NCBI GenBank assembly: GCA_951406725.2
Contig: OX597837.1
Span: forward strand, 23,684,001 to 23,748,000
Length of the DNA: 64,000 nt
Direction: 5' to 3'
Origin: Octopus vulgaris
Lineage: Eukaryota
Below, piece by piece: positions 4,193 through 51,641 of this stretch (its first letter is position 1; every line of letters begins with the position of its first letter). The position numbers and the translations under genes are program-made. The notes under the pieces were generated by a model. It made no database searches and was not told the origin of the DNA. It saw only the letters and a program-made list of their open reading frames with translations.

Positions 4193-4394
4193 GAACGCCA
4201 TGTTGGATCGTTAGCCCCTAAACGCAATTTTTTTCTCTCCTTGTTTCTTTTCTGTGTATCTTTCTGTTGAAGAGCGTAGGCTCGAAACGTAAAAGACTTG
4301 TTTTATTTCTATTCCTGAGTGCCATACTAATACAATTGCTTGTTTGTACTCCACCTGCCTTCGTCTTTTGTTTATTTTCGTAAACCTTCCCGTT
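4193..4394 (+). mobile_element. Short hammerhead-containing element, family F, probable Penelope-like pLTR (may extend upstream to about 4080)
   Basis: Closely similar direct repeat at 4977-5210; ends in (TA)n; carries a minimal hammerhead motif. Confidence 0.65.
4259..4296 (+). ncRNA. Minimal hammerhead ribozyme variant (PLE type), non-canonical core position 6
   Basis: Stem I TCTTT/AAAGA, core CTGTTGA plus extra A, stem II GAGC-GTAG-GCTC, GAAA, palindromic ACGT stem III, GUA cleavage triplet. Confidence 0.6.
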
Positions 4395-4976: not shown

Positions 4977-4977
<1 letters not shown>

Positions 4978-5210
4978 AACGGCATGTTGGATCATTAGCT
5001 CCTACACGCATTTTTTTTCTCTCCTTGTTTCTTTTCTGTGTATTTTTCTGCCGAAGAGTATAGGCTCGAAACGTAAAAGACTTGTTTTATTTCTATTCCT
5101 GAGTGCCATACTAATACAATTGTTTGTTTGTACTCCACCTGCCTTCGTCTTTTGTTTATTTTCGTAAACTTGCCTTCGTCTTTTGTTTATTTTCGTAAAC
5201 CTTCCCATTA
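4977..5210 (+). mobile_element. Family F hammerhead element, second copy, with a 29-bp internal tandem duplication
   Basis: Homologous to 4193-4394; inserted in (TA)n; GCCTTCGTCTTTTGTTTATTTTCGTAAAC at 5141 and 5172. Confidence 0.65.
5043..5080 (+). ncRNA. Minimal hammerhead ribozyme variant (PLE type)
   Basis: TTTTT-CTGCCGA-A-GAGT-ATAG-GCTC-GAAA-CG-TA-AAAGA. Confidence 0.55.
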
Positions 5211-8836: not shown

Positions 8837-9032
8837 CACCCACCACACAACCATGCCATGTATTCCTTTATTCTTGTTGTCTTTTATTGGTTTGAGTCAT
8901 CGGATTATGGCCATGCTGTAGCATCGCATTTCAAGGATCTTTGATACTTATGTCAGATCCGGTATTTAGTCTGGTACTTGTTTTTCAATATCTGTTTATC
9001 AAACAGCTATGTTTACCCTTTCTTACATGGAC

Positions 9033-9076
9033 ACATGCTGTTTCAACCTGATTTAGTCTCCTCAGTGGCAAATATC
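9033..9076 (-). ncRNA. Truncated hammerhead copy lacking C17 and the 3' strand of stem I
   Basis: 44 bp identical to 11902-11945. Confidence 0.6.
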
Positions 9077-9102
9077 TCAATGTAACTCAGCACCAAAATA
9101 TT

Positions 9103-10472
9103 TTAAATTCTTTTGTTGCCATATTTCTGTTGAAGTACACTGCCTTTCATTTTTCTGTTGAAGTACACTGCCTTTCATTTTTCTGTTGAAGTACACTGCC
9201 TTTCATTTTTCTGTTGAAGTACAATGCCTTTCATTTTTCTGTTGAAGTACACTGCCTTTCATTTTTCTGTTGAAGTACACTGCCTTTCATTTTTCTGTTG
9301 AAGTACACTGCCTTTCATTTTCTGTTGAAGTACAATGCCTTTCATTTTTCTGTTGAAGTACACTGCCTTTCATTTTTCTGTTGAAGTACAATGCCTTTCA
9401 TTTTTCTGTTGAAGTACAATGCCTTTCATTTTTCTGTTGAAGTACACTGCCTTTCATTTTACTGTTGAAGTACACTGCCTTTCATTTTTCTGTTGAAGTA
9501 CACTGCCTTTCATTTTTCTGTTGAAGTACAATGCCTTTCATTTTTCTGTTGAAGTACACTGCCTTTCATTTTTCTGTTGAAGTACACTGCCTTTCATTTT
9601 TCTGTTGAAGTACACTGCCTTTCATTTTTCTGTTGAAGTACAATGCCTTTCATTTTTCTGTTGAAGTACACTGCCTTTCATTTTTCTGTTGAAGTACAAT
9701 GCCTTTCATTTTTCTGTTGAAGTACAATGCCTTTCATTTTTCTGTTGAAGTACACTGCCTTTCATTTTTCTGTTGAAGTACACTGCCTTTCATTTTTCTG
9801 TTGAAGTACACTGCCTTTCATTCTTCTGTTGAAGTACACTGCCTTTCATTTTTCTGTTGAAGTACAATGCCTTTCATTTTTCTGTTGAAGTACAATGCCT
9901 TTCATTTTTCTGTTGAAGTACAATGCCTTTCATTTTTCTGTTGAAGTACACTGCCTTTCATTTTTCTGTTGAAGTACACTGCCTTTCATTTTTCTGTTGA
10001 AGTACACTGCCTTTCATTTTTCTGTTGAAGTACAATGCCTTTCATTTTTCTGTTGAAGTACAATGCCTTTCATTTTTCTGTTGAAGTACAATGCCTTTCA
10101 TTTTACTGTTGAAGTACACTGCCTTTCATTTTACTGTTGAAGTACACTGCCTTTCATTTTTCTGTTGAAGTACACTGTCTTTCATTTTTCTGTTGAAGTA
10201 CACTGCCTTTCATTTTACTGTTGAAATACACTGCCTTTCATTTTTCTGTTGAAGTACACTGTCTTTCATTTTTCTGTTGAAGTACACTGCCTTTATTTCA
10301 ATGAATTTTGAAAATATGAAAAGTTTAGTGAAAATCATTTTGTCGTTATTAAGCTGTTGTTTGAGACATAAATGAACATGATGTTTTGACGGAAGGTTTT
10401 AATTTAAATAAGAAGAAGTTTGTATCATAGAACCAAGGGCTGCCTCAGGCAGGCTGGTATTAAAAGGGATAA
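9103..10472. mobile_element. piggyBac-like MITE carrying an expanded internal minisatellite
   Basis: Left end TTAA-ATTCTTTT (decayed), right end AAAAGGG-ATAA; 10295-10470 is homologous to the reverse complement of 37838-38395. Confidence 0.55.
9124..10293. repeat. 28-bp minisatellite, 42 units (TTTTTCTGTTGAAGTACA(C/A)TGCCTTTCA)
   Basis: Period 28 measured directly; units counted by eye. Confidence 0.95.
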
Positions 10473-10845: not shown

Positions 10846-11304
10846 ACATGTATGGTGATTGTCAGCTCACTTTTGAGCATAACCACTTTCACATTGTAGA
10901 CATATGCAATGAGAAAGGTTTGATACTATTCTTAGCTTGATTCCTTTAACACCTACCTAAGCTTGATTTTCTTTTAAGTCTTTGGCAACAAATATGGAAC
11001 ATAATTTGGTTAAGAATCCTCCTGACAATAGTTCCTCCCATGTGCATTTGCCCAGAATGGACAAATTGCACAACATTTTGTCTCATAGAAACATCTCAAA
11101 GACACTTGTATATTAAAATCACCGAGCTCTACTTAGAATACCAGTGGATTTCCAATCACAATGTTTCAAACACATTTGGTTTCTTCAAGGGACAAATACT
11201 TCAGATGTTCTGAGCCAAGCCAATAATACATGTTCTAGAAACATTTATTGATTTGTGCAAAAGTAAGCCAGTGTAGAATTAAAATTAATATACACACTAG
11301 AAAC

Positions 11305-11790
11305 TATTTGAAATCGAAGTCAAATTTTATGACTGGCATCCGTGCAAGTAGAGCGCTAAAAGTACCATATGAGTGTGATCATTGCCAGCACAACAAGCTG
11401 GCTTCCATGCCAGTGGTACATAAAAAACATCATTTGAGCGTGATCGTTACCTGCGTCGCCTTACTGGCACTTGTGCTGGTGGCACATGAAAAAACATTCG
11501 AGCGAGGTCGTTGCTAGTGCTGCTGGACTGGCTCCTGTGCAGGTGGCACATAAAAAGCACCATTTGAGTGTGGCCGTTGCCAGTACCGCCTGACTGGCCC
11601 TCGTGCCGGTGGCACGTAAAAGCACCCACTACACTCTCGGAGTGGTAGGCATTAGGAAGGGCATCCAGCTGTAGAAACTCTGCCAGATCAGATTGGAGGC
11701 TGGTGCAGCAATATGGTTTGCCAGACCTGAGTCAAATCGGCCAATTCATGCTAGCATGGAAAGCGGGCATTAAACGATGATGATGATGAT
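11305..11790 (+). mobile_element. RTE LINE 3' UTR with about five ~65-bp hairpin-bearing units
   Basis: Repeated GTGC(C/A)GGTGGCAC(A/G)TAAAA(A)GCAC units, conserved tail, (GAT)n. Confidence 0.85.
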
Positions 11791-11894
11791 GGGTGTATAT
11801 AACTTTATAATTTATACACAAACATAGAATGCTACTAGCTGTAATATTCTCAAGGAGACTTGTACTTTAAAAACACTGGGCTTCACTCAGTCAA

Positions 11895-11940
11895 TTGCCA
11901 GACATGCTGTTTCAACCTGATTTAGTCTCCTCAGTGGCAA
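11895..11940 (-). ncRNA. Type I hammerhead ribozyme with canonical core
   Basis: Minus strand reads TTGCCA-CTGAGGA-GACT-AAATCA-GGTT-GAAA-CA-GCA-TG-TC-TGGCAA: 6-bp stem I, CUGANGA, stem II, GAAA, stem III, GUC cleavage triplet. Confidence 0.8.
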
Positions 11941-12121
11941 ATATCCCAGGTATACCAGAAATGCTTGTTCTAGTTAAAAAATTGGTGGGCAAAATACATA
12001 CTGATTCGTGTGAAAGCTTGCCAGTTTAGAATTCAACTAATATACATGCTTGAAACAGCCTTCGGTTAAAATACCAGTGTGTAATAAGTTTTATAATGTG
12101 TATATATGTATGTCTGAAAAT

Positions 12122-20932: not shown

Positions 20933-21134
20933 TGACTGTGTGTGTGTATCGTTGGCGATTTTTTTTTCCCTCATCTTCCCTTCCTTGGACCTTTCCTTTT
21001 TCTATGTTTCTGACGAAGAGCTCTGCTCGAAACGTTAAATCCTCCTTCTTTCTTTCCTTTCCTGAGCGTCCAATAACACTATACTTGTTCCACATCCTTG
21101 CATTGTTGTGTTTTCTCTTTGTTCATGTTTGGAT

Positions 21135-21138
<4 letters not shown>
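20933..21138 (+). mobile_element. Hammerhead-containing element, family G, probable Penelope-like pLTR
   Basis: Same start and end as 42843-43049; TA-rich on both flanks. Confidence 0.7.
21006..21040 (+). ncRNA. Minimal (dimer-type) hammerhead ribozyme
   Basis: GTTT-CTGACGA-A-GAGC-TCT-GCTC-GAAA-CG-TT-AAAT; intact core, GUU triplet. Confidence 0.7.
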
Positions 21139-21178
<40 letters not shown>

Positions 21179-21242
21179 GGAATGATATTATTAAAATACC
21201 ATCATGAGTGGCAAGCGAATTATCAGCTGTACAGGCAAATTA

Positions 21243-21638
21243 ATAAAATATATACATACAATATTAAATATGTACATGTATACACAAGGGCACTACATTA
21301 ACACCGAGCACCTACATCGCTAAAAATAGAAGTCAAAAATACTTCTGAGCCACCGAATAGTCACAAATCTATTACAGACAAGATAGGAAAAAATATCAGT
21401 GAACAACAATAACGTCTTACCTCTACTGGGTCAGAACAAGCATTTACTTGTCCTGACCCAGTAGAGGTAAGACGTTATTATTGTTCACTGATATTTTTTC
21501 CTATCATGTCTGTAATAGATTTGTGACTATTCGGTGGTTCAGAAGTATTTTTGACTTCTGTTTTTAGCGATGCAGGTGCTCATGTAGTGCCCTTGTGTAT
21601 ATACGTACATATCTAATATTCTATGTATACATTTTATA
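21243..21638. repeat. Long fold-back inverted repeat, arms about 198 and 192 bp, 6-nt loop
   Basis: Arms 21243-21440 and 21447-21638; about 11 substitutions and one 7-nt indel by manual alignment. Confidence 0.95.
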
Positions 21639-51474: not shown

Positions 51475-51641
51475 GACATCGTGAAGTATATTTGCCACTT
51501 AAATGTGGCTAACCCTTAAGGGTGGATGCTCCTCTAGCTTGTAGCCAGCTGGAGGAGGTGTCCTCCTAGGGTTACAAGCTACAGTAGCATCCACCCTTAA
51601 GAGTTAGCCACATTTAAGTGGCAAATATACTTCACGAAGTC
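51475..51641. repeat. Fold-back inverted repeat, 72-bp arms, centre is itself a stem-loop
   Basis: Arms 51475-51546 and 51570-51641 with about 5 mismatches; centre GGAGGA-GGTG-TCCTCC. Confidence 0.95.

Follow-up and report, generated by a model that had tools for sequence, protein, structure and literature searches.

The window, meaning the whole stretch of 64,000 nucleotides that was analysed, is rich in repeats, which have a cephalopod-like look. The features surrounding a short hammerhead ribozyme fragment and its nearby partner are as follows.

8867–9032, minus strand: 3' part of an old SINE-like repeat, apparently the host of the insert; its A-rich tail points towards 8867, and its identity to the in-window consensus is 70%
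9030–9032, plus strand: GAC, bases that belong to the host repeat and at the same time complement the GUC cleavage triplet; a 3-nt junction microhomology that may have acted as primer
9030–9079, minus strand: hammerhead fragment with stem I 5' strand, CUGAGGA, stem II, GAAA, stem III and GUC; C17 = 9030
9080–9097, no strand assigned: right flank, either the SINE-like repeat resuming or a decayed stretch in which the hammerhead family continues; a high-copy element interrupts it from about 9098
11086–11320, minus strand: unit A, the more decayed second unit, identical to unit B at 150 of 223 positions (67%), with its hammerhead core mutated
11329–11826, no strand assigned: dispersed repeat of about 500 bp inserted between units A and B; the tandem period is about 256 bp once it is removed
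11840–12084, minus strand: unit B, a decayed retrozyme-like repeat unit with a hammerhead, showing gaps of 8 bp and 10 bp beside the ribozyme relative to unit A
11895–11940, minus strand: intact-core type I hammerhead, the likely donor, with stem I of 6 bp, stem II of 4 bp including two G-U pairs, and stem III of 3 bp with a 3-nt loop; C17 at 11901

The bases 9033–9076 are identical to 11902–11945 at 44 of 44 positions, as an earlier note on this DNA had stated, and at 46 of 47 when the match is extended to 9079. The two copies are spaced by 2,869 bp (about 2.9 kb), and they represent the only exact repeat of at least 22 bp lying 1–10 kb apart in the 64-kb window when tandem arrays and multi-copy families are excluded. 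The minus-strand order that had been described, from the stem I 5' strand through CUGAGGA, stem II and GAAA to stem III, is indeed present in 9030–9079. Here the minus strand reads GAAACA-GCAUG-UGUC, in which a 5-nt loop closes stem III and C17 comes next, at 9030. Loop III is 2 nt longer than that of the partner at 11895–11940, which otherwise has the same sequence less one AC, and it is presumably this AC, lost or gained in loop III, that makes the exact identity stop at U16.1. The earlier note had placed the end of homology at U16.1, which did not hold up, since the fragment possesses its own GUC at 9030–9032. Read in this way, the fragment ends at C17, within a 3-nt microhomology. As the GAC at 9030–9032 is common to the host and to the complement of GUC, the breakpoint is fixed only to within 9030–9033. 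It had also been claimed that C17 and the 3' strand of stem I are replaced by unrelated sequence. The 3' strand after C17 is missing (the nearest UGGCA is 171 nt downstream); C17, on the other hand, is retained at 9030, and the sequence occupying the place of the missing strand is the old SINE-like repeat.

The partner at 11895–11940 contains every core base, together with the whole type I set (CUGANGA, GAAA and NUH core, stems I–III, open stem I). It was the sole hit of a type I descriptor in the window, with an expectation of 0.025 per 64 kb estimated from 40 resampled sequences; a looser CUGANGA-GAAA pattern search counts overlapping matches and was not taken as a statistic. The Rfam model Hammerhead_1 (RF00163) matches 11895–11940 over its full length with 32.2 bits against a gathering score of 34 (E 2.4e-5 in a 3.5-kb search and 4.3e-4 in the whole window), and at the gathering threshold the Rfam search gave no match in the whole window. 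In the folding model, the catalytic fold of the 46-mer has a predicted energy of -4.2 kcal/mol, compared with -9.4 for the minimum free energy (MFE) structure. Nor does the hammerhead stand out in MFE folding (z 0.67 for the 61-mer and 0.21–0.77 overall), and the stem III region is predicted to self-pair as a dimer at -6.6. Because the predicted catalytic fold is not the MFE and the stem III loop has 3 nt, self-cleavage of 11895–11940 is considered only putative.

Other hammerhead-like and repeat features are scattered over the window. Two 88% identical copies on the plus strand (20942–21189 and 42850–43098) include CUGACGA...GAAAC hammerhead-like cores at 21010 and 42918 and continue for about 150 bp past the core; we take this pair to be Penelope-LTR-like (PLE-type). 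Two further plus-strand copies, 94% identical and 784 bp apart (4193–4385 and 4977–5169), have a decayed hammerhead-like core and each end near a TA run, and these presumably belong to a second Penelope-LTR-like family. A single CUGAUGA/CUGACGA...GAAA motif occurs on the minus strand at 35650–35705, with no second copy in the window and no full hammerhead scored by the descriptor. Moreover, near-perfect inverted repeats of 160–220 bp, MITE-like or foldback, lie outside the multi-copy families at 21350–21537, 43142–43364 and 51479–51637.

Parts of unit B were found in 10 of 24 sequencing runs, none of them recorded as RNA, and the contigs of four runs (X1, X2, X6 and X9, from three studies and labelled A, B, A and D) were compared over 8925–9135. 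X1 or X6 may be the source data of the window, and X6–X10 contain small shares of the words. The layout of units A and B fits a tandem unit of 150–450 bp bearing a type I hammerhead, and the two can be regarded as a decayed retrozyme-like element of a new low-copy family, which by a rough estimate has 20–40 loci. The summed depth over the core amounts to 23, 26, 25 and 40 times single copy in the four runs, a depth sum being no copy number. Most of the other family pieces listed (32 of 310) differ from the 44-mer at 4–6 of 40–45 positions, and 7 of these 32 align gap-free from 9030. From such alignment limits, rather than from letters, the longer loop III spacing of the fragment appears to be a form present elsewhere in the family. 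At another locus, two hammerhead cores of the same family stand in one contig (joint 9067 to 9030; X1, X2 and X6), forming a second tandem element. This locus matches 9030–9067 with 0–2 listed differences, of which the 0 (X1) conflicts with the contig structure and is not relied on. Unit A itself gave no descriptor or Rfam match to a hammerhead, and the class of active retrozyme, which by a preprint definition has a complete hammerhead in at least two consecutive units, was rejected in view of its mutated core. A third tandem unit around the fragment was rejected likewise, the profile of units A and B hitting only 9031–9080. The Pfam scan of four segments from 10949–12026 revealed no reverse transcriptase (RT) or GIY-YIG endonuclease frame, which speaks against a Penelope-like element here; none of the 150 segments scanned (of 219) rose above the Pfam cut-off for a host gene or RT frame. 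One sub-threshold zf-RVT match at 33003–33332 on the minus strand (E 0.0017, 19.4 bits, cut-off 27.5) is a possible LINE remnant. A metagenome scan for a 27-base core gave no matches.

On the side of C17 the fragment adjoins the SINE-like repeat. The profile of 19 in-window copies of this repeat matches 8880–9011 (E 2.6e-11), and 9023–9032 fits the next profile columns up to the junction (11 bits, p about 2e-4), where the consensus reads GGGGAC, then GTAAAC. The host repeat is in register up to the left junction, and it plausibly resumes at 9080. It is identical to the consensus at 97 of 138 positions (70%), as compared with 79–95% for the 19 profile copies, and is far older than an insert identical to its partner at 44 of 44. 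A young SINE-like copy has an A-box-like and B-box-like head on its minus strand. For the right flank, the anchored fit of 9080–9097 gives p 0.002–0.056 for 16 SINE copies, p 0.002 for unit A and p 0.12 for unit B. With the SINE and the unit A continuation fitting equally, the right junction can be read either way, and a microhomology there is plausible but decayed. Depth jumps from 9093–9101 in the contigs of the four runs. Further on, a 28-bp minisatellite of 42 copies with 97% matches extends over 9120–10298, starting 43 bp from the fragment; its left edge (9101–9134) is a high-copy stretch that in X1 reaches about 150 times single depth. No other contig of at least 85% over 8925–8964 was found in the four runs. 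No poly(A) stands at the C17 end of the fragment, and around SINE and fragment together there is no target duplication beyond GAC (p 0.66). A retrocopy made by LINE-type target-primed reverse transcription (class 1 TSIP) was rejected, the fragment having no target-site duplication (TSD) of at least 5 bp and no poly(A) tail. We also rejected the idea that a SINE had entered an intact hammerhead, whose other half would then lie past the SINE tail; the anchored fit for this is weak (p 0.03–0.33).

The fragment is present in all four runs, and X6 and X9 each span the stretch in a single contig, so it is not an assembly artefact. Neither an empty allele nor a joint skipping the insert was seen in any of the four. 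The exact 44-mer forms a separate contig in X1 with a depth of 110.7 against 57.3 for single copy (ratio 1.9), fitting two loci, and in X2 its contig has a depth of 55.7, fitting one haplotype at each place. Among the matches listed, the partner 2.9 kb away is the closest to the fragment in a family of roughly 20–40 loci. All four runs also contain a form with one difference over 9033–9077, probably the other allele of the partner. A second allele in X2 (depth 17.9) shows 11 differences and a gap over 8988–9135 (148 bp), with at least two differences inside the 44-mer (9048 and 9075) and strong divergence from 9018 onward. The divergence of this allele is sharply clustered, the adjoining 242 bp being common to both haplotypes. 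As regards the ends of family copies, the best-supported loose ends (24 of 124 listed) run on as stem I 3' strand and family flank, and those with the best support fall at 9033 (4 contigs, X1) and 9039 (7–12 contigs per run), being consensus lines with an agreement of 0.53–0.72. Plotting of copy endpoints, proposed earlier as a check, was in this way carried out in part, and no pile-up at C17 was seen among the best 24 of 124 loose ends and 32 of 310 pieces.

We consider it somewhat probable that the insert of about 47–50 bases came into the older SINE-like repeat while a break was being repaired, through a template switch to neighbouring DNA that was primed by microhomology. Breakage of the old repeat would have left a 3' end in GAC, which annealed to the donor 2.9 kb off at the GAC opposite the GUC triplet and was extended for about 50 nt along it. 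The copy would then have rejoined the host at a second short match, the family and unit A having CAGAC/TGT just past 9079, where the host consensus resumes ACGTAAAC. Later the neighbour may have lost AC from loop III, or the copy may have gained it by slippage. The DNA-level templated insertion, which the earlier note had named as its alternative, accordingly comes out as the likelier one, on account of the GAC microhomology and the local donor. DNA templating explains the locality, the microhomology and the lack of poly(A) and TSD, and under it the end at the cut site follows from junction microhomology, not from ribozyme activity; the family ends that run on past C17 also count for it. Insertions that were templated by nearby DNA in the germ line and have microhomology at their junctions have been described, at least in the accessible parts of PMC8421209 and PMC2943611. 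Several points weigh against DNA templating. The end at C17 is a coincidence at a cost of about 1%, since the two strands together offer 154 GAC sites within 5 kb, 69 of which also have a second match further downstream, and just one of them is the site used. The templates described in the accessible part of PMC8421209 are mostly within 100 bp, as against 2.9 kb here. In addition, the pre-insertion site comes from the repeat profile with no empty allele in the four runs, and the right flank fits unit A as well as the SINE. With a second locus matching 9030–9067 at 0–2 listed differences, the neighbour as sole donor is not proven.

The main claim of the earlier note was that the 5' cleavage product of the hammerhead had been reverse-transcribed. 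Local DNA templating should use a donor as near as 2.9 kb, but a copy retrotransposed in trans would be very unlikely to land so close to it, which leaves only a version in cis viable. In it, a minus-strand transcript self-cleaved at 11901, its GUC 3' end paired with a broken GAC end 2.9 kb along in the same strand direction, and reverse transcription then copied about 50 nt into the break. We regard this as unlikely, although much of the geometry agrees with it, even more closely than had been claimed: the fragment corresponds to the 5' product and, read in its own register, terminates at C17; the donor has kept its core intact; GUC and GAC pair terminally as priming on a cleaved end would leave them; and DNA templating would yield a C17 end by chance in only about 1% of cases. 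Breaks can be patched with reverse-transcribed RNA, leaving microhomology but neither TSD nor poly(A), as class 2 TSIPs indicate in the portion of PMC5110952 at hand. According to the same portion, however, such insertions draw on distant donors, and in break repair RNA oligos fell orders of magnitude short of DNA. Moreover, the GAC is also the host's own, no host gene turned up to supply a transcript (0 of 150 segments above the Pfam cut-off), the predicted MFE is not the catalytic fold, and this is a single case with no series of C17-ending copies among the best 24 of 124 loose ends. Two further readings concern the history of the flanks. The divergent X2 allele suggests an older insert or gene conversion, and it is conceivable, while quite unlikely in our estimation, that 9030–9097 is an old truncated family copy abutting a 5'-truncated SINE, whose core was overwritten from unit B with the 44 bp as conversion tract. 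Consistent with this, 9077–9097 is in exact register with unit A (anchored p 0.002), the X2 second allele diverges strongly from 9018 and has T at 9048, probably also present in the partner's one-difference form, and the 31 bp that follow the SINE tail bear a weak resemblance to unit A (p 0.017–0.03). On the other hand, the profile of units A and B finds 9031–9080 and no more, neither past the tail nor between the interrupting repeats; the sequence that follows the tail scores 19 against unit B, like other SINE flanks (4 of 22 at 19 or above), and part of it repeats the neighbouring SINE head. These tests were post hoc, and the SINE junction at C17 is left unexplained by conversion. Finally, we judged as very improbable a chimeric retrocopy, in which ligation or a template switch joined cleaved hammerhead RNA, bearing a 2',3'-cyclic phosphate, to a 5'-truncated SINE RNA and the pair was co-inserted like U6/L1. 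Strand and order are those of U6/L1, with the processed RNA end first and then the retroelement 3' part with its tail, and in the accessible text of PMC6789731 RtcB joins cyclic-phosphate RNA to 5'-OH L1 RNA. The ages of the two parts, however, do not match, the SINE being 30% off consensus and the hammerhead 44/44 (chance 8e-4 at even 15% divergence); there is no target duplication around the pair (p 0.66), and the SINE may resume on the far side of the fragment.

Taken together, the locus represents a new low-copy retrozyme-like family along with one insertion that is most likely a scar of DNA repair, and as far as the DNA itself can tell, the fragment, a single case, does not prove ribozyme cleavage. 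On the best reading it is an ordinary local repair scar. A GUC triplet supplies microhomology, which has to be controlled for wherever copies end at hammerhead cut sites. If the cis RNA reading were true, the insert would preserve, in the germ line of an animal, the trace of ribozyme cleavage and of repair on an RNA template; it would be evidence at the sequence level that one hammerhead of this genome was active in germ cells and that repair used its product as template. That reading would also bear on the role of hammerheads in PLEs and retrozymes, whose function is called unclear (PMC8557442); in one PLE studied in vitro, the part of the report available (PMC11167929) describes reverse transcription as starting internally, hammerhead cleavage as dispensable, and no RNA-seq reads ending at the cut site.

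No insert ending at a hammerhead cut site is described in the literature searched, in which subscription articles and supplements were barely covered; nor does the octopus hammerhead literature contain one, judging by titles and abstract openings, and the accessible portions of the retrozyme papers PMC7229834 and 10.64898/2026.07.22.740005 describe no short insert of this sort. The non-LTR retrozymes of animals, as these same portions present them, resemble the octopus units in the type I hammerhead, the tandem unit (about 256 bp, published range 150–450 bp), the low GC and the non-coding nature, as well as in having dispersed relatives, here including one contig with two cores. The octopus units are unlike them in being decayed, split by a 500-bp repeat, of low copy and with only one intact core. 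Penelope-like elements (PMC11167929 and PMC8557442, in part) share the type I hammerhead and are a proposed RT source for moving retrozymes, whereas the octopus locus has no RT or endonuclease frame, and PLE copies end where RT starts internally rather than at the cut site. In the U6/L1 chimeric retrocopies, so far as the available text of PMC6789731 goes, an RNA end with a predicted cyclic phosphate is similarly joined in sense to a retroelement 3' part, but the two parts here differ greatly in age (70% versus 100% identity) and no TSD flanks them. Class 2 TSIPs, in the section of PMC5110952 consulted, are likewise patches with microhomology, without TSD or poly(A) and with a possible RNA origin; their donors are distant, while the closest donor here is local, with no empty allele in four runs. 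For MMB-TI (PMC8421209) and SD-MMEJ (PMC2943611), again on partial texts, the template lies within about 100 bp as opposed to 2.9 kb and its end is not a ribozyme cut site as it is here, but the octopus insert is like theirs in being short, drawn from nearby DNA, joined by microhomology at least on its left side and free of poly(A) and TSD.
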